Shown here piece after piece: positions 2,763 through 56,933 of a stretch of 64,000 nucleotides of DNA. Source of the stretch: a virus; IMG/VR virus record IMGVR_UViG_3300027996_000026, positions 2,116 through 66,115 of that record, one strand, 5' to 3'. The translations under genes were made by a program, and so were the position numbers. Positions within the stretch are counted from its first letter, which is position 1, and the number at the start of each line of letters is the position of its first letter. The notes beneath the pieces are model-generated. The model made no database searches and was not told where the DNA came from. It saw only the letters and a program-made list of their open reading frames with translations.

Positions 2763-4613
2763 TTAATATCATTTCTTTTTATTTAATCTTCTCTCTTTAG
2801 ATAAGCTTGATTCTCATAATATTATTCTTCCATTATTATAGATTCATGATATTACTCATACCCAACTCTTACCTCTATTTTTAGTTATTATATATCTTAT
2901 AGGTCTTCATTCTCATTCAGATCAAGTTCATCATGTATCGCTTCTATCTCTATCTATATGTATAACCTTGTTAGCTACTTGTGCTATTGCTGCACCATCT
3001 TTAAATGAATCATTATCTGGCTCGTCATCCTTACCTAATTTTCTATAGTGACTAACTAGCAAGCATGATACTTTGTATTTTCTGATTAGATCATTTAACT
3101 GATGCATAAACTCTTCTATAGCTAGATCATGTCTCTGGTTCTTTTCGAACTTTACATAATGTAAATGATCTATTACTACAAGTTTAACTCATCTATTAAT
3201 TACTACATCCTTGAATAAATTCTCTAGTTCTTTTATTCATACCATTTGTTTATGTGCTAAATCTATTATCCCTTTATTAAAGTTATTTAGATTTTTTACT
3301 GCTGTCTGAATATCTAATTGTATACCTGGATAATCTTCTTCAGTAAATAAATTTGCTTCAAATATTGAATGTGATGGCATAGGCTCATCTAACTTATTCA
3401 TAGTTAATCTCTTTTTCCTAATCGCTACTACTTGATAATATATATCATTGATTCTACTTTCTTCTAATCTATCCTCTAATGAATATCTTGCTACTGCAAA
3501 TCATTGTCTAGCTACATTATTAGCTATCTGATTTACTATAGTTGTTTTACCTACTCATGTTATTCATCATATTACTATTAATTGTCCTGGTAATAAATAT
3601 CATAGATTTGTATCAAACTTCTCAAATCAATAACTCATTACTGTAGATTTAGTTCTTAATCTTAATTCATCATATCATCTTGCTAATCATTCATCATATC
3701 AAATTAATGAGAATGTTTTTTCTTTAGTTTGAACTGATAGATCTAATATAGATCATAATAATTCTGCTCATGAAATTTTTCATAATTCATTTACATCTTC
3801 AGCTATACTTTCTTCTAACTCATATATATCTGAATCTATCTCTGCTTTAAATCATTCCTTACATTTTATTCCAGCTGGATCATTATCAAATAATATATAA
3901 ATCTTAGTAAACTTATTTAGTAATGCTACTAACTCTTCTGTAGGTTTAGCTACTGCAGATTTAAATCATATTACTTGTTGAGTATATTGTCTTAATGTAA
4001 GATAGTCTGTTAATCATTCTACTAATATTATATAATCTCTCTTGAGATCTTTATCGAAATGATAAAACATTCCATCATTACCATTAGTATAAAATCATTT
4101 TCATACTAGACTTCTATATTGATATCAAGTCTTTACTCATTTTATATCATGCATTATTGCTGATATACAATAAGTTTCTTGATCTGGTGCATCCTTTCAG
4201 AATGTCTTTGCCTTCGTTAATGATATTATATTATTAGGAAGTAGCTTCAATTGGATTCATCTTAAGTACAAATATGAAGCTAATCTATCTTCATCGTTGA
4301 TCTTGTAGACTTTTTCTATAGGTTTCCATTCATCTTTCTCTATATGTAGATTAAAGTTTTGTTTAGTAAACCATTCTATTGCTTCTGGTATTGTAGCACC
4401 TGTAGCTCATATATAGAAATTTAACGGATTCCCATGAGGTCTCCAGTCTTTTGCTCAATTGAAATTAGTTACTATATTATCCTTAACGCAATAACTATAA
4501 CTATCACTAAATTTTCAATCATCCCATATCCATTTCCTAGTATTAGTTTCTATTCACATAGCATCTAATACTTCTTTTATATCTACTTGTTTTATTTTTT
4601 CTAAAGAATCCAT
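2763..4613 (-). CDS. Fused primase (TOPRIM)-DnaB/SF4 helicase (616 aa)
   Basis: TOPRIM motifs IILVEGLTDYL and ILFDNDPAG. Helicase motifs GITGVGKTT, LEDRLEE, LVVIDHLH, LLVSHYRK, IITKNRG. Confidence 0.9.
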
Positions 4614-12342: not shown

Positions 12343-15300
12343 TTAGTTATCCATAACTACATTATTTAAATCAACTAATTTTTTTCATAATTGATCTAGT
12401 TTATCATAAGCTTTCTCAAACTTATCTCAACTAACTATATTAAGTAGTTCTTTAAATTCATCCATAACCTTTGTTTTCTCGGCTGTATCTATCTTATTTC
12501 ATTCTTGAAGTAGTTTCATATCATCTGAAACTTTAAGTAGCTTAGAATCGAAATTTGATATGATTTGTTTTTCTAGATCTCATGAATACTTATTTAATTG
12601 TTCTCATATAGATTTAGTTAATAATTCTACATCAACTTCTTTATATGTATCTATTTGATTTCTAATATAAATAATGTCATCTTTCAGAGGTGTCTTTGAA
12701 ACATATCATTTTATTTCATCTAAATTCTTTAATAAATCTTTCTCATTTATTCAAGACTCTTTTTGTTGCTTAATATTTTCAATTCAAGTCTTAACTGTTT
12801 CTAGAACATCTTTCATTTTTGAAATTCATTTATCAAGATCATCTCATATATTTGTATATATTTCTGATCATACTTCTCAAGTATTAGAATTAATATCTTT
12901 TATTGATTCTTTAGATATAGCTTCTACTTTACCTATCATATATTCTAAAGCTGTATTTAATTCAACTATAGATATACCTCATGATGATGATCATCAATTT
13001 CATCTTCACATCCATTGATCTTTATTCTCATAATTATCTAATGCTGTATGTAATTCAGATTCATCTAATCATCAGCTTCAGCCTTGTTGTAATTCATATC
13101 AAGCACTTCAATCATCTGTTATATATCCAGACACATCTTTTCCCCATACTGCTGCAGCATTTTCACTAGCTGTTGGTAAGTCTCCTATATCTCATGTTAT
13201 TACATTAGCTCATGTTACAGTTGTTACAAATACATCTGCTTGCCATCTTATATCTATTCACCCTCATCAAGTTGTGACTCCACTATTTTTAACTGGCCTA
13301 ACTCAATCTTCTCTAAAAATACGGATTATATCTGTTTGCCATACATTAGTTGATGTAATGTTATCCCAGAATATATTTACTACTGTATTGTTAATTCTTA
13401 AATTTCAAGCATCTATTGCTGTAACTCATCCAAAGAATGCTGCAATTCATAGAGATGTCGTTGTATTATAGATAAACCAAGCATATGCTTCTTTTGCTGT
13501 AAAGTTTACTGCTGACGATATATCTACTTCAGTATCTGTATAATCTGCTGTAAATTTAGTAATAGTTGAACCATCTAAAGCATAAGATATATATACAGTA
13601 TCATCTGATTGACTATCTAAGAATGTTAATCAACCAGCTGTTACTATTCAAAGAGATTCTATTCATAGTTTTGCTGTAACACCATTAGTATATGTTGCTC
13701 TTATTCTTATACTATCACCATCTTCTAAATCTAATCAACTTCATAGATTGTTTATATAACTGTATCAACTTCATCAACTTACTATAGAATTATCTAATTC
13801 ATTTGCTTGTGTTACATTATATAACTGTACTCTTGTTCAATCTATTAAGTTTGCATTACTTATGGTAACCGATACTGGTGGTTCATATGTACTACCATTA
13901 TCTGCTGTAAATAAATTAAAATCTGGATGAGGTGTCGTTCAATCACTTAATACAACTCTAACTCATTTTATAGGAGTTCATGTAGTTCAATCTATAACCC
14001 CATTAACTGTTTTAAATTTATTTCAACTAATCTGAACTAAATCATGCCAGTTGAAAGCATCTACTCATTGGAAAGTTCCACCTTGTCATATATTATATCT
14101 TAACCATCTCATTATCTCTTCTCATGTATGAGCTGTTGCTGAATCTGTAATAGTGATACCAAAGTCTTTTCAATTCCATGTTACTGGACTAGCTCAATGA
14201 TCTGTGATAGTTAATCAAGTAACTGAAGGATCTCATGTCGTTAATCCATTACTACTAGGAGATAATCATATTACATATAATTGGTCTTCTAAAGTACCAT
14301 ATTGTCAATATACATCTTCTCTTACTTGGTCATATCAATCAGCTTGTATTTCTACTACTAGATGGTCTGTATAATCAAAGTTTCAATGAGTCACATCTCA
14401 ATACACTTGTATTAATTGGTCTATTTTATCTGTATTATTTGCATTAGTTGTTCATGTTCAATCTTGTTGTTGGAATCTTGATTGCTGATTGAAGGCTTCT
14501 CATACTGATTGTATAGCAGACCAAGTAGCAGTTGTTGTTCAACCATCTGTATACCTCAATCCATCTCTTGATAAGAAAGCTATAGAAGTATCTCAGTCTG
14601 ACCATTCAACTCAATCAATGAAAGTAAATGAATTTGGTCAATTAGTTGTGATTGTAAAAGGTTTATTTGCTAAAGCTTCTCACTCATCTCAAAGTGCTAT
14701 CCATTGTTCTATCATATAAGAATAGAAATTTTGTACTGTAGACGCTGTAGTTAATTTAAACGACACTCAAGGTGTTGCAAATACATTTGTATTAATAGTT
14801 AATCAACTAGATACTACATATGCTCTATCTCATAATTGAGAAATAGGAGTAGATGTTGAACCACTTTCTGATCCTGTTACCTCTATTCATGTTACCCTTA
14901 TAGGTAAATATCCAGCTTGCATTATTACATAATCTATTGTAATACTACCAGATACTTCTTCATTCCATGTTTCAGTTATTCAACTACTTAATGTAGAAAA
15001 CTTTTCTGTATCTGTTCAAGTTTCAAATACTTTAACAAAACTACCTGCAACTAATCAAGTGAAAGCTAATCATCTACTTATCACTACTGGTACTGTATAA
15101 TAAGTTCAGTCATCTGACATAAATCTACTAAAGTCAGCATGTGCTGTTGTTCAGTCTGATTGTACTACTCTTACTCATTTATTAGTTCATGTTCATAATA
15201 TATCAATTCTTTGAGTCCTAAAGTCAGAACCATCATCAAAGACCATATCTGACCAATTAAATACATCTATAGAATCAAAGCTACCATCTTGTGCTAGATT

Positions 15301-18759: not shown

Positions 18760-18873
18760 TTATAATGCTATAGAATAAGCTATTGCTTCTGCTTTAGAAG
18801 CTTTATTCTCTAAATCTATTTTAATATCAGTTAAATCTGGTGATGTATTAGCTGACTTTAATTGTATTCACAT
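18760..18873 (-). CDS. Small protein (37 aa) ending in AEAIAYSIAL
   Basis: Short ORF tightly coupled to the next gene. Confidence 0.45.
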
Positions 18874-18886
18874 ATTTATTTAATTA

Positions 18887-19597
18887 TTATTTAATTTTTA
18901 AATGTCTTAATCTTATTGCCTTATCTAATGCTAATCTATTCTTTTTATCTAATGATTCTACGTTATAAACAATGAATCAAGTTTTTAAAACTTTTAAATA
19001 ATAATCTACTAGCTTATCTTTTATTTCAATTGTTCTACAATTTAAAAAGAATATTCATTTATCAATTCATTCTCTGAATACACTTATATCCATCTCAATT
19101 GCTTTTCTAGAACTATTTAGACTATCTAGTATATAATATTTCTTTGTCTTCTTAGAATAGAAGTATGTGAGAAAATGTCATACTATTTTATGATCCTTTA
19201 GATCTACATCTAATTCGTCTATACTAATTAAATTATCTTCTTTAATTTTCGAATAAAGTCTACCTGCATATTTTAATCATATACCATACGCATATCAATT
19301 TTTTAAATTCTTTTCAAATATATCTGAAGTTCATTTATGAATTAATATATCTACTGATAAATTAAATTTTTCGTAAATTGCTTTCTTAAACCAATTTGCT
19401 ATTGTGTCAGCAAATGTTCACCATAAATTCCACCAAGCTTTATCTTTCTCAGCTTTATGTGATGTAGCTATTATATATTCGTTAGTTGCTTGTATTGAAA
19501 ACATTATTTGAAATATATGAAACCATACATAAATACTACAAGCATTTCTTGTAAAGTATTCTAGTCATTGATTATATAATATAAATAATTTATTCAT
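18887..19597 (-). CDS. Papain-like (C1/C39-type) cysteine peptidase
   Basis: YNQG..ACSIY, GGT, GHFLTY, YILDS: the Q/C/H/D catalytic pattern. Confidence 0.6.
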
Positions 19598-51328: not shown

Positions 51329-51604
51329 ATGAAAAATAAAGAATTGATAAAGTCAATTGCACATGATACATCTTTTTCTGAATCTACTATTAATATAGTA
51401 ATAAGAAGCTTAACTTCTAATATAACTAAGACTATAGCTTGATGAGATAAGGTTAGGTTAATTGATTTTTGAACATTTGATAGTGTACGTATTAAGTCAA
51501 GAAATTGAGTTAATCCATCTACTTGAGAAAAGATCGTAATACCAGAATTGAACAGAGTTAAGTTTAAACCATCTACTATTATTAAAAAATTATTAAATAA
51601 ATAA
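51329..51604 (+). CDS. hup: HU family DNA-binding protein
   Basis: MKNKELIKSIA..VRLIDFGTF..RNGVNPSTGEKIVIP..VKFKPS, with the conserved glycines encoded by TGA. Confidence 0.92.
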
Positions 51605-51605
51605 T

Positions 51606-51926
51606 ATGGCAATAAAAAATGTAAGAACTGTAGCATATAAAACTCTTTCTGATAGATTAGCAAAACAACATTGATTAACTAAAGCATTAGCTAGAACATT
51701 ACTTGATTCATTTTTTCATGAAGTTGAATATGAATTACTGCAATGAAAAAATGTTGCTATTAAAAATATGTTTTCTTTGAAAACAAGAAAGATTAAATGA
51801 AAGGTTATGTTTAATACTAAGTTTAAAAAACATTTACCTATAGATGCTCATCGCTGATTTAGGTGTGTATTCTCTCCCAGTATAATGGAAAGAATGAAAG
51901 TATATGATAGACAAAAAAAAGACTAG
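51606..51926 (+). CDS. Divergent HU/IHF-like protein
   Basis: LAKQHGLTKALARTLLDSFFHEVEYELLQGKNVAIKNMFSL..RCVFSP. Confidence 0.7.
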
Positions 51927-53884: not shown

Positions 53885-53923
53885 ATAATAATAATTATTA
53901 ATAAATATACTCTAACGACTCTA

Positions 53924-53951
53924 ATACTACGTTTAATTAAATTAAAGTCAA
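53924..53951 (-). promoter_or_regulatory. Sigma70-like promoter upstream of recA
   Basis: TTGACT-N16-TAGTAT on the minus strand. Confidence 0.35.
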
Positions 53952-54000
53952 AAGTTTATTTATTTTTACAGCATCTATAAATTCATATTTCTGCCCTAGA

Positions 54001-54215
54001 GAGTACCCCTTTGTATCAGCATCAACAAGCCAAAAAATTTTTTTCTGATATAAAAATCAAGACAATATCTAGATGATCTGGTTCAATTATATTTGTGCTT
54101 TATGCTTATTGTAACTACTTATTGCCTATAACAAGCCATAACCTTATTTCCACCATATCAGTAATCCAATTTTAAAGCCCCCATGAGTACCGTTCTTTTC
54201 AGCATCAATAAGCCA
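54001..54215. repeat. Imperfect direct repeat of ~31 nt, 2 copies
   Basis: gagtacc..tcagcatcaa(c/t)aagcca at 54001-54032 and 54185-54215. Confidence 0.8.
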
Positions 54216-54336
54216 TTTATTTTTTTTATGTCTATACTTTACCTGGTGATTAGTAGATAAAATGGAAAGGGGTACTCCTATACTATACTACTACTTGGGA
54301 CATATATACCCCCCCTTCGACAGCAGCAGCATCAGC

Positions 54337-54756
54337 TTTTTATTTGTTTGTTTTTTAGTTTTGTTTTTATTTTGTTTTTTTATTTTATTTTTTTAATGTG
54401 TTGTGTGTATTTGTTTGTTTGTATTAGGCGAGGGTTGGCTTTGGGATAGGGTTTGTTGTTGTGTTGTTGTGTGTGTGTTGTTGTTGTTTGTTGTTGTTGT
54501 TGATTGTTTGTTGTATGTATGTATAGTAGTGTTTGTGGTTGTGGTTTTGTGGTTGTTGTTTTGTGGTTGTGGTATTGTAGTGTTGGCTTGGTAGTGGGAA
54601 GGAGAGGTTATAGTTGAGGAGTAGTTTTATATGTTATGGTGTTTTTGTTTGTGTGGTTTTTTGTTTTTTGTTTTTTGTTTTTTTTGTTTTTTTATTTATT
54701 AGTATTATATGTATATATAGTTATTATATATATATATTATAATATTTTTATATATT
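54337..54756. other. G/T-rich tract with only 3 C in 420 nt
   Basis: Counted directly: C at 54429, 54439 and 54587. Confidence 0.9.
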
Positions 54757-54800
54757 CTAATATATATAGTATAATTATATATAATAGTAATTAGGGCGAA

Positions 54801-54884
54801 AATAAAGAGCTATTTTCTGAGTGGGAGATTAATAACAAAGGATTGTTATTATGGTATCTCTCATCAGATGACTAGCTCTTTATT
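54801..54884. other. 84-nt rod-like hairpin
   Basis: aataaagagcta/tagctctttatt, tctga/tcaga, gagat/atctc, taataacaa/ttgttatta. Confidence 0.85.
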
Positions 54885-55461
54885 GTTCTTGTTTTTTGAT
54901 GGTTTTAGTTTTGATTAAATCTATACTTATAGTATATGGATTTAATAGGAGAAAGCAAACTTTAGTTTGACTTTCTTTTGCGACTCGATTCTGGTTAAGC
55001 ATAGAACTTATTCTAGTTCATTAGTTTTAGTATTGCAATTAGTAGGATTTTTGTCGGATAGATTTCTGGGAGGTTATTACTGGAGCATAGCTCTTACCTT
55101 AATTAATGTGTTTCTTTTTCTGGACTCTTCTAGTTATGTTTCGTAGGTGCTACATTCAGTAGAGGATGGCGTTGTATGACACTAGGTCTCGTGTGGTTAG
55201 CTTTAGCTTTATTAGGCTTAGGGCTGGCTTTGGGATCTTGTAGAATAATCTACAAGTAATTAATAGCTATTTGTGTATAAGCTATAATTGATATGAATCA
55301 CCATAGTAATAGTGATGCTATATTGTTTATTCTAAATAGTTTCATAATGTAATTTTAATAATAAATATAATTGAACATATATATAATGTACAACTCGCTG
55401 AGCTGTATCTGATATATACATATGTTCAAAGAAATATTTTATATAATGTATCTTAGTACAC

Positions 55462-55785
55462 TTATTTATTTTCTTGAGCTTCTTTATATTTCTCTCAAGT
55501 ATATATTCCTGTATCAGATAATTCTTCATCTGATAATGTATCTATATCCCACGTATCTGTGGGATTAAGTAATTCTCATTTAGCCATTCTGGCTGCTTTC
55601 TCTTTAGAGATAAATGGTTCTTCTCAAATAACTTTTATATCAAAGAATTGTTTTACGTAATCATACTTACTCTTAATATATAATAAGTGTGATACTGATT
55701 CTCTATTCATATGATTGTCTATATCTATTCATCTATGTGAATATTCTATAATCTCATATGGTATTCTTATTGGTAGTTTAGACAT
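55462..55785 (-). CDS. Hypothetical protein (107 aa)
   Basis: Open ORF under table 25. Confidence 0.55.
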
Positions 55786-55964
55786 AATAATTTAATTAAT
55801 AATAAAATAGTTCAGAAGAATATTTTATATTGTGCATTTAAATGCGTTATAAGAGATTTAAATAGTAATGACTAATGTCTTATCCTATTATTATCTTCCG
55901 ATTAAAATAGAGTTAGCTATCTATGATAGATAACGAATTAGGCGAGGGCTGGCTTTGGGATATT

Positions 55965-56127
55965 GTAATCTAATCAAATTAATTTAATTAGTTTTGAAAT
56001 AGGATATACAATATAGTGACCTTGTTGTAACTACATTAAGTAATTACATTTCAACTTGTAGTTGGTAACGGGCAGTCACGATTGTATATACTATGATAAA
56101 CTAATTAAATTAATTTGATTAGATTAC
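55965..56127. other. 163-nt rod-like hairpin with a perfect 30-bp outer stem
   Basis: 55965-55994 is the exact reverse complement of 56098-56127, with nested inner stems. Confidence 0.9.
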
Positions 56128-56190
56128 TTGTTTGTACAGGCAGACTAGTACACCTAACAGGATATCAAGTATCAGTTAGATGCAGTAAGT

Positions 56191-56230
56191 AAAAAAAAAG
56201 AGTAAGACATTATAGTCTTACACTTTTTTT
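56191..56230. terminator. Intrinsic terminator
   Basis: A-run, gtaagac-attata-gtcttac, T-run. Confidence 0.65.
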
Positions 56231-56407
56231 ATTCTATTACTCAACTGTTTGTTTTGATAGCTTTAGCTATCTTGCTTTGTGATATACTTCTGTACTCACT
56301 TCAAGCTGAAGCATCATATGCTTTAGTAACTCTTTTTAATTTATGCATTGTAATCTTATTACTAATATAAAATAATAAAAGCTTAGAATTTAATCTAAGC
56401 TTTTATA

Positions 56408-56788
56408 TTATATAGAGTCTATGTCTTCTTTAGATGACACTCTTCTATCTGCTAACAGCTCTTTAAATCTATTTGATTTTACATAATCAGTTTCATAGAT
56501 TTTCTTATTAGTAACTTCATCAACTTCATCAGTTGGTGTAGATACTCTACAAGATAACTCGTTAGTCTCTGGGAAGATAGCTAATTTAAGTGAACTATCA
56601 TCTAGAACATAACCTCTTATATTAATATAAGTAGTTGCTGGTTGAGTTTTAACTTCACCTTCAGCATCAGTAATTTCTTTAGAAGCATTTCTTGAAATGT
56701 CTTCTAAGAATATATCTTGTTCAGTTAAACCGAACTTAGATAATACTTTAGTTTCTAAAGTATTCAATTTAATAGTACTCATAATCAT
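56408..56788 (-). CDS. Hypothetical protein (126 aa, no TGA codons)
   Basis: Track ORF ending in TAA. Confidence 0.7.
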   Translation of the reverse strand: MIMSTIKLNTLETKVLSKFGLTEQDIFLEDISRNASKEITDAEGEVKTQPATTYINIRGYVLDDSSLKLAIFPETNELSCRVSTPTDEVDEVTNKKIYETDYVKSNRFKELLADRRVSSKEDIDSI

Positions 56789-56933
56789 ATAGATTAAGAA
56801 ATAAAAATAAGGAAGGATATTACTCTTCCATAAGAATATTTTATATTATGTATTTCAAGTACACAATTAATTTCAAGTACACAAGTCTCTGGATATTATT
56901 TATTATACCTCTTATAGATCTTTGTAGACTGTA

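Follow-up and report, generated by a model that had tools for sequence, protein, structure and literature searches.

A 163-nt imperfect palindrome adjoining a conserved G-tract motif in the control region of an uncultured marine phage

The DNA analysed here (the window) is a stretch of 64,000 nucleotides that corresponds to bases 2116–66115 of a 66,648-bp virus record, and comes from an uncultured marine phage. With translation table 11 almost no long frames were found, whereas with TGA read as a sense codon there are 33 minus-strand frames of at least 150 aa, covering 50 kb. All called genes except a small one of 63 aa and two of the HU family lie on the minus strand (the gene strand). The JGI contig Ga0233412_10000044 (66,621 bp) is a circular permutation of the 66,648-bp record, the break points falling in coding DNA, and this permutation indicates that the assembly is circular or terminally redundant. 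Within the sole large non-coding region (53885–56407) the only genes are one of 107 aa and a micro-gene of 39 aa, and it is in this control region, where GC skew turns positive at 54–56 kb, that the palindrome described here is located.

Related phages were found by protein search. The phage RecA (52898–53884, minus strand) has one close phage relative, at 73 % identity, in L122, and a lysozyme homologue identified L120. Homologues of the 126-aa protein encoded next to the control region (40–41 % identity) identified L245, L246 and L247. The next-best RecA hits include proteins of Gracilibacteria and Altimarinota at about 47 % identity, a similarity that fits a host belonging to the candidate phyla. 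Two adjacent HU/IHF-family genes (51329–51926, plus strand) lie 4 kb from the palindrome, and the same arrangement is seen in L122 and L123.

On the gene strand, the order of features is the 126-aa gene, a terminator (56406–56375), the 39-aa micro-gene (56348–56229), a second terminator (stem 56221–56202, T9), a 60-nt spacer, the palindrome, 1 nt, the third copy of a 26-nt motif, a small hairpin and then the 107-aa gene. The individual features are as follows.

56408–56788, minus strand: 126-aa gene of unassigned function, upstream of the palindrome on the gene strand; the synteny anchor for L245, L246 and L247
56375–56406, minus strand: terminator-like hairpin after the 126-aa gene, from the inverted-repeat and terminator scans
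56229–56348, minus strand: 39-aa micro-gene, the C-terminus of which, AKAIKTNSGVIE, matches AKAIRTNSGVIE of L245 (7439–7555)
56188–56235, either strand: bidirectional terminator-like hairpin (stem 56202–56221), with A9 before and T7 after it on the plus strand; ends the micro-gene on the minus strand
56128–56187, either strand: 60-nt spacer from palindrome to terminator, with a small CTAAC...GTTAG hairpin; part of the approximately 220 nt missing in L245 and L246
55965–56127, either strand: imperfect palindrome of 163 nt, with perfect outer arms and a partly paired interior (55995–56097) that includes a 21-nt apex
55970–55991, either strand: 22-bp dyad in the left arm, CTAATCAAATT/AATTTAATTAG, paired at 10 of 11 positions; the right arm has its counterpart at 56101–56122
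55938–55963, plus strand: motif copy 3, 26 nt, with four G tracts on the plus strand; its reverse complement lies just past the terminators on the gene strand
55912–55934, either strand: small 10-bp hairpin flanking motif copy 3 on the side away from the palindrome; the hairpin in this place in L122 differs in sequence
55462–55785, minus strand: 107-aa gene of unassigned function; on the gene strand it is the first gene to follow motif copy 3

The micro-gene (38 aa in L245 and 39 aa in the window, where it includes one TGA) lies between two terminators, and the two products share the C-terminus AKAI[KR]TNSGVIE. The flanking 107-aa and 126-aa proteins gave no family or DNA-binding domain hits. 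A first-pass annotation of this DNA had placed the palindrome 2 nt from a copy of the motif and about 60 nt from a terminator. The proximity to the motif was confirmed with a gap of 1 nt rather than 2 nt, and the spacer is indeed 60 nt, though the terminator stem itself (56202–56221) starts 75 nt past the palindrome.

The perfect 30-bp arms and the inner stems described in the first-pass annotation are borne out by both sequence and folding. The arms (55965–55994 and 56098–56127) form an inverted repeat that is 100 % complementary, and they are 103 nt apart. The inner stems are ATATACAAT/ATTGTATAT, GTGAC/GTCAC and AACTACA/TGTAGTT, together with CTTGTT/AACGGG, which requires G-U pairs on the plus strand. 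Pairing continues through the interior, with mismatches and small indels, down to the 21-nt apex, and approximately one quarter of the interior positions are mismatched or gapped whereas the arms are without any mismatch. The complete fold includes 61 pairs, of which 45 are A-U. When both strands were folded as RNA, as had been recommended, the 163 nt gave -63.7 kcal/mol (z -10.2) for the plus strand and -61.6 kcal/mol (z -12.9) for the minus strand, and the central 103 nt folded alone gave -28.5 kcal/mol (z -4.4). In a scan of the 64 kb for perfect inverted repeats within 380 nt, the 30-bp arms were the longest and the runner-up was 15 bp; among the longest arms of 100 first-order Markov simulations the mean was 15.2 and none was above 20. 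When the 64 kb was folded in sliding segments of 170 nt, the segment containing the palindrome ranked first on both strands, and most of the other top-ranking segments are also in the control region (54700–56400).

The dyad found in each arm has the consensus CTAATYAAATT/AATTTRATTAG. Only six 22-mers of such dyad quality are present in the 64 kb and two of the six are those in the arms; a search of the window for a third copy returned only the two arm matches. The centre of the left-arm dyad is about 19 nt from motif copy 3, and in L245 the centre of the small hairpin is about 20 nt from the motif. The arm dyad may be an ancestral motif-adjacent hairpin that was engulfed by an inverted duplication, or it may be a site for a dimeric protein. 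Likewise, perfect arms around a decayed interior could reflect selection on the arms, outward growth of the palindrome or a need for a long perfect duplex. Beyond the palindrome, the plus strand has a T-rich tail, TTGTTTGT (6 of 8 T), and the gene strand has AATATCCC, which includes no run.

An unchanged copy of the palindrome (100 % identity) is present in five assembly records (JGI 3300023210, Logan SRR8436474 and SRR7615657, and ENA ERZ27250502 and ERZ27250310), some of which possibly share a sample origin. A sixth contig, from JGI 3300023112, breaks off at 56102, within the right arm. Absence from reads had been proposed as the sign of a fold-back assembly artefact, and checking at the contig level disposed of this concern, as all five records agree, the flanks are unrelated and the interior is imperfect, whereas a fold-back artefact would yield a perfect palindrome. 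The palindrome is real, and it is statistically exceptional for this genome. No polymorphism was found in it among the assemblies, but the population is nearly clonal (one difference in 5.5 kb) and the invariance is therefore uninformative on constraint. Structures in the control region break short-read assemblies: in two Logan assemblies contigs terminate at 54664, where the G/T tract of the control region has its edge, and the sixth contig ends in the right arm. For 53885–56900, two metatranscriptomes among 12 runs contain 18 % and 7 % of the sampled words, values that are not evidence of expression.

The architecture of the control region is kept in L122, L245 and L246, each having a GGGG...CCCC box, a G/T tract poor in C, a tract of A and T only, a hairpin of about 90 nt and the motif; in L120 the box, the G/T tract and hairpins remain. 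The phages differ in the slot that separates the micro-gene terminator from the motif. In L245, a 7-bp hairpin with T5 comes after the 38-aa micro-gene and the motif begins 8 nt on, and in L246 about 15 nt lead from a terminator (7-bp stem, T8) to a diverged motif. Relative to these two syntenic phages, the window includes approximately 220 nt extra at the slot, made up of the 60-nt spacer and the palindrome. The L122 contig ends 88 nt past the motif and these 88 nt include no terminator; their alignment to the palindrome scored 14, which is not significant (shuffle mean 12.6), and walking across the slot with neighbouring proteins of L116 and L122 led back to the same contigs only. Searches of IMG/VR with the motif 15-mer and 23-mer, the 496-aa protein, the lysozyme, the L122 end, an arm 20-mer and an alignment of the 126-aa family found no relatives, and with RecA only generic matches of about 40 % were recovered. 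Pattern scans of metagenomes gave 0 matches to the motif 23-mer and 120 chance matches to a 16-mer, none of them related, and the phages collection searched in distant mode gave no match. Since the slots in L245 and L246 hold only a short terminator hairpin, any function of the palindrome would be dispensable in related phages. From these comparisons, the long palindrome is a lineage-specific addition at a position where relatives carry a short hairpin, and not a conserved component. The conservation in related phages looked for in the first-pass annotation was thus not found in the L245 and L246 slots, and this absence weakens every role that had been proposed there, namely a cruciform promoter for the phage RNA polymerase, an origin, a packaging signal or a long non-coding RNA.

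The palindrome is neither a gene nor a member of a known RNA family, and no mobile element is detectable in it. A search of the window against Rfam gave no match at the gathering score and, at E<=1, only a terminator-like piece of CsrC at 56185–56229. An ordinary intrinsic terminator is excluded, as the element is 163 nt long with an A-U-rich stem, a 21-nt apex and no U run on the gene strand, and the terminator scan is silent at this position; the first-pass annotation, in judging it too long for a terminator, was right, given 163 nt and 61 pairs. A telomere-resolution (protelomerase telRL) site was rejected because the 21-nt centre is asymmetric with mismatches and indels nearby, and the flanks are unrelated. 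A MITE was also rejected, since, though inverted ends are present, the element is single-copy, with no convincing target duplication and no matching IS end in the collections searched. The flanks share only TT (or GTAA if the borders are shifted), which is not significant in DNA with 26 % G+C. No second copy of the palindrome was found in the window at up to three mismatches, and exact matching of the arm 20-mer gave three single matches in unrelated representative genomes and three in IMG/VR, none of them paired. A likeness between the arm and the start of the 107-aa gene (28 of 38, the best non-self match) is only 2 above background and was dropped.

The core of the motif is present in three copies each in the window, L122 and L245 and in one diverged copy in L246, always in the same orientation. 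Corresponding copies in different phages are more alike than the copies within one phage, and hence the three copies are old and individually conserved. On the plus strand the motif is a four-G-tract sequence, of which the window has four on this strand and one on the other. The plus-strand sites (54427–54445, 55215–55234 and 55941–55959, and also 54585–54602) are all in the control region, and on this strand the motif is a potential two-tetrad G-quadruplex. The four G tracts are kept where the sequences differ, as in L246 (GGCTTGGTTGGCAACGGGG, at 1182) and L120 (GGTGGGTGGGTGGGGG, at 19201); at 8889 in L245 there are also four G tracts, with different loops. Hairpins lie beside motif copies 2 and 3, with sequences that differ between copies and between phages, and copy 1 has no hairpin upstream on the gene strand. 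In the relatives, the hairpins beside copies 2 and 3 have T runs on the gene strand only and were read as ordinary terminators followed by the motif; the L245 counterpart of the hairpin at 56202–56221 likewise has its T run on the gene strand only. A terminator followed by the motif is the layout that would be expected if a gene-strand promoter lies at the motif. This reading and a plus-strand reading are not exclusive, as the plus strand is the template for gene-strand transcription.

Other structures in the control region also have a strand orientation. The conserved hairpin of about 90 nt (54797–54890 in the window, 9195–9295 in L245, 1150–1252 in L122 and 1735–1824 in L247) is preceded by (T)AGGGGC/TTAGGGCGA. 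In the four phages it includes 2, 3, 5 and 3 G-U pairs on the plus-oriented strand (13 in total) and 0 on the gene strand, and its stability on the plus-oriented strand is greater by 4–10 kcal/mol, which strongly indicates that this hairpin acts on the strand antisense to that of the genes. As a control, the hairpin downstream of the 107-aa gene was folded, and there the gene strand gave the better fold. It seems that at least part of the control region works single-stranded on the plus strand, be it as RNA, as template DNA or as displaced DNA, and a G/T mutational bias on the plus strand could contribute to the strand pattern.

Between RecA and the G/T tract there are direct repeats about 172–183 bp apart (54007–54047 and 54190–54230 in the window). 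Repeats in the same place are found in L122 (1855–1916 and 2027–2088, a 62-nt pair with 92 % identity) and in L246 (about 4250–4400); these appear iteron-like and could mark an origin. A box, GGGG(T/A)AC...CTACTACT...CCCCC followed by a (CAGCAG/CATCAG)-like run, is found at the edge of the G/T tract in five of five phages, at 54262–54320 in the window, about 1730–1800 in L122, 9750–9813 in L245, about 4190–4240 in L246 and about 19840–19880 in L120. L120 also has its own long hairpin of 126 nt (15170–15295, z -6.3), made of repeated units, and, at 18850–19400, tandem units of about 320 nt with TTGGCTATAAATAGCCAA hairpins and TGTATAAT boxes on the plus-oriented strand.

A lean of the palindrome towards the plus strand, noted in the first-pass annotation from pairs that are compatible with G-U, is in the direction claimed but is weak in size. 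The strands differ by 2 kcal/mol in minimum free energy. The unbranched rod is at -63.7 kcal/mol on the plus strand and at -55.8 kcal/mol when mirrored onto the minus strand, a difference of 8 kcal/mol, but with a branched apex the minus strand comes within 2 kcal/mol of the plus. Three of three transition-type mismatches are G-U on the plus strand and none favours the minus strand, where they are C-A. With DNA parameters, the plus strand is again favoured (-38.7 versus -36.7 kcal/mol).

The explanation that we prefer, tentatively and as one that may well prove wrong, is that a lineage-specific inverted duplication enlarged the structure beside motif copy 3, and that any role it has would be as a single-stranded fold of the plus strand. 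An inverted duplication in this lineage would have produced an enlarged nucleic-acid structure directly beside a conserved motif copy. The plus strand is the template from which all genes are read and, for any antisense RNA, would be the sense strand, and on it the rod would fold immediately 3' of the four-G-tract motif. The rod might then form the body of a plus-strand RNA of about 265 nt, with its start at the motif or ahead of it and its end at the bidirectional terminator (56202–56229). Alternatively, it might be an extruded hairpin in the template-strand DNA that exposes the adjacent motif to the putative giant virion RNA polymerase of the phage. The plus-strand reading draws on the G-U mismatches, the rod energy, the T-rich tail found on this strand only and the T7 of the next terminator, as well as on the plus-side stability of the 90-nt hairpin, the four-G-tract motif and the GC skew. 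Against it, the lean of the palindrome itself comes down to three mismatches and 2–8 kcal/mol, the motif-side hairpins of the relatives carry only gene-strand T runs, and the palindrome is missing from the L245 and L246 slots and has no demonstrable homology to the 88 nt in L122. In addition, a search for a plus-strand promoter gave fewer sigma-70-like matches than were found in shuffled sequences.

The DNA form of this proposal can be stated more specifically, namely that the extruded hairpin and a G-quadruplex together offer single-stranded template DNA to a putative two-barrel virion polymerase of 4,191 residues under negative supercoiling. We regard this as improbable. Extrusion in any form, and so also the DNA alternative of the preferred explanation, has against it that a 163-bp imperfect palindrome with a 21-nt apex extrudes poorly in comparison with the 5–7-bp hairpins of N4. 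In its favour, the virion RNA polymerase of N4 shows no activity on native N4 DNA and uses promoters that are extruded hairpins (PMC13434306). Both of the giant virion polymerases characterised, those of N4 and phi14:2, transcribe single-stranded or denatured DNA far better than native double-stranded DNA, and the crAss-like phage phi14:2 has abundant long intergenic RNAs and early promoters without a common motif. If the proposal were true, an N4-like structured-DNA promoter would have evolved independently in a phage of a TGA-recoded bacterium of the candidate phyla.

A duplication without any dedicated function must also be considered. The palindrome would then be a recent mutational or selfish product that arose by fold-back template-switch growth or as a single MITE-like insertion and is tolerated in a safe gap, and this we consider doubtful, though to be taken seriously. 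The additional 220 nt, found here and not in the slots of L245 and L246, would be accounted for directly, and perfect arms around a decayed interior are what outward growth is expected to leave. The similar distances from the motif to the arm dyad (about 19 nt) and to the L245 hairpin (about 20 nt) fit an ancestral hairpin that was swallowed, and the palindrome is single-copy. However, the interior pairs far beyond chance (z -4.4) and the 30-bp arms are free of mismatches. An insertion is further disfavoured by an unconvincing target-site duplication (TT only) and by an arm 20-mer that gives only single chance matches in representative genomes and IMG/VR. The palindrome is also fixed and invariant in all assemblies, an observation of little weight in a near-clonal population.

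The palindrome might alternatively act as duplex DNA, with the identical arms serving as paired sites, 131 bp apart, for a dimeric DNA-binding protein, in an operator, a boundary or an origin-like element beside motif copy 3. The HU/IHF-family pair of the phage would be a candidate binder and the potential to form a hairpin a by-product of duplicating the second site. This is unlikely, though the scarcity of dyads of the quality found in each arm (10 of 11 pairs, two of only six in 64 kb) is in its favour, as are the complete identity of the arms around a diverged interior, the location in a gap between terminators and motif that is probably untranscribed, and the presence 4 kb away of two adjacent HU-family genes, other convincing plus-strand genes not being seen. 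Each arm also holds AATCAA, which we take to be near to but not a match for the Escherichia coli IHF consensus. On the other hand, no binder was found, the flanking 107-aa and 126-aa proteins being without DNA-binding domain hits, and there is no third copy in the window. The motif-side dyads vary by copy and by phage, which points to structure rather than a conserved protein site, and the 131 bp between centres amount to about 12.5 helical turns, a phasing that does not suit simple looping. A role in RNA of the gene strand, in which the rod in a read-through transcript, with its perfect 30-bp base, is cut by host RNase III or blocks the polymerase and so insulates the unit that begins at motif copy 3, appears to be very unlikely. 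A perfect stem of at least 20 bp is a canonical RNase III substrate, as in the processing sites of T7 early mRNA, and here a stem of the size needed (about two helical turns of dsRNA) is predicted on both strands in the 30-bp perfect duplex. The minus-strand fold is nearly equal (-61.6 kcal/mol, z -12.9), and the slot in the relatives holds a gene-strand terminator. Nevertheless, two good terminators already lie upstream, and on the gene strand the palindrome has no U run after it, its wobble-type mismatches turn into C-A and its unbranched rod loses 8 kcal/mol.

Considered alone, the palindrome is a modest curiosity, an oversized spacer hairpin that is not conserved in the nearest readable relatives. 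The interest lies in its setting, as it abuts one of three conserved copies of a G-tract motif in the sole large non-coding region, among structures that favour one strand. If the putative giant polymerase of this phage reads structured single-stranded DNA in the manner of the N4 enzyme, the locus would be a ready-made test substrate. If instead the duplication is neutral, it documents the growth of a palindrome beside terminators in AT-rich phage genomes.

Several known systems resemble the locus in part. Like other oversized intergenic hairpins of phages, the palindrome is unique, very long and located in a spacer, replaces a short hairpin and is missing in some relatives; it differs from them in having no gene-strand U run and an AT-rich stem, in abutting a G-tract motif and in the dyads within its arms. 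With MITEs it shares a size of about 160 bp, perfect 30-bp terminal inverted repeats, AT-richness, a non-coding location and presence or absence between relatives. The R sites of T7 and sib of lambda are also long irregular hairpins between units with stems of RNase III size. The palindrome is much longer than the T7 sites, however, and it lies past two terminators and before the motif, so that gene-strand transcription may be absent. The palindrome resembles the single-strand origins (ssoA/ssoU, the Ff minus-strand origin and G4-type ssi) as an imperfect rod-like fold of about 150 nt, which here leans weakly to one strand, whereas the phage studied here is a dsDNA phage with a DnaB-type helicase-primase and no Rep/HUH gene seen. 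The origins oriL (a 144-bp palindrome) and oriS of HSV-1 are similar in that a long AT-rich palindrome, with a candidate dyad site in each arm, is found in the main non-coding region, and here direct repeats and an AT-only tract are nearby. The centre is imperfect here, and absence from relatives, as in the L245 and L246 slots, would be unexpected for an essential origin. The early promoters of N4 offer a further parallel, in that three motif copies in one orientation lie in a non-coding region with hairpins by copies 2 and 3, and the strand that folds better is the template. In N4, a hairpin with a 5–7-bp stem, a 3-nt loop and conserved bases is found at each early promoter and is part of it, whereas the hairpins beside the motif here are variable, with none upstream of copy 1 on the gene strand, and the palindrome, at 163 nt and unconserved, is of the wrong size and lies beside the motif. 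The polymerases also differ, that of N4 being T7-like and the putative enzyme here of the two-barrel (crAss-like) type.
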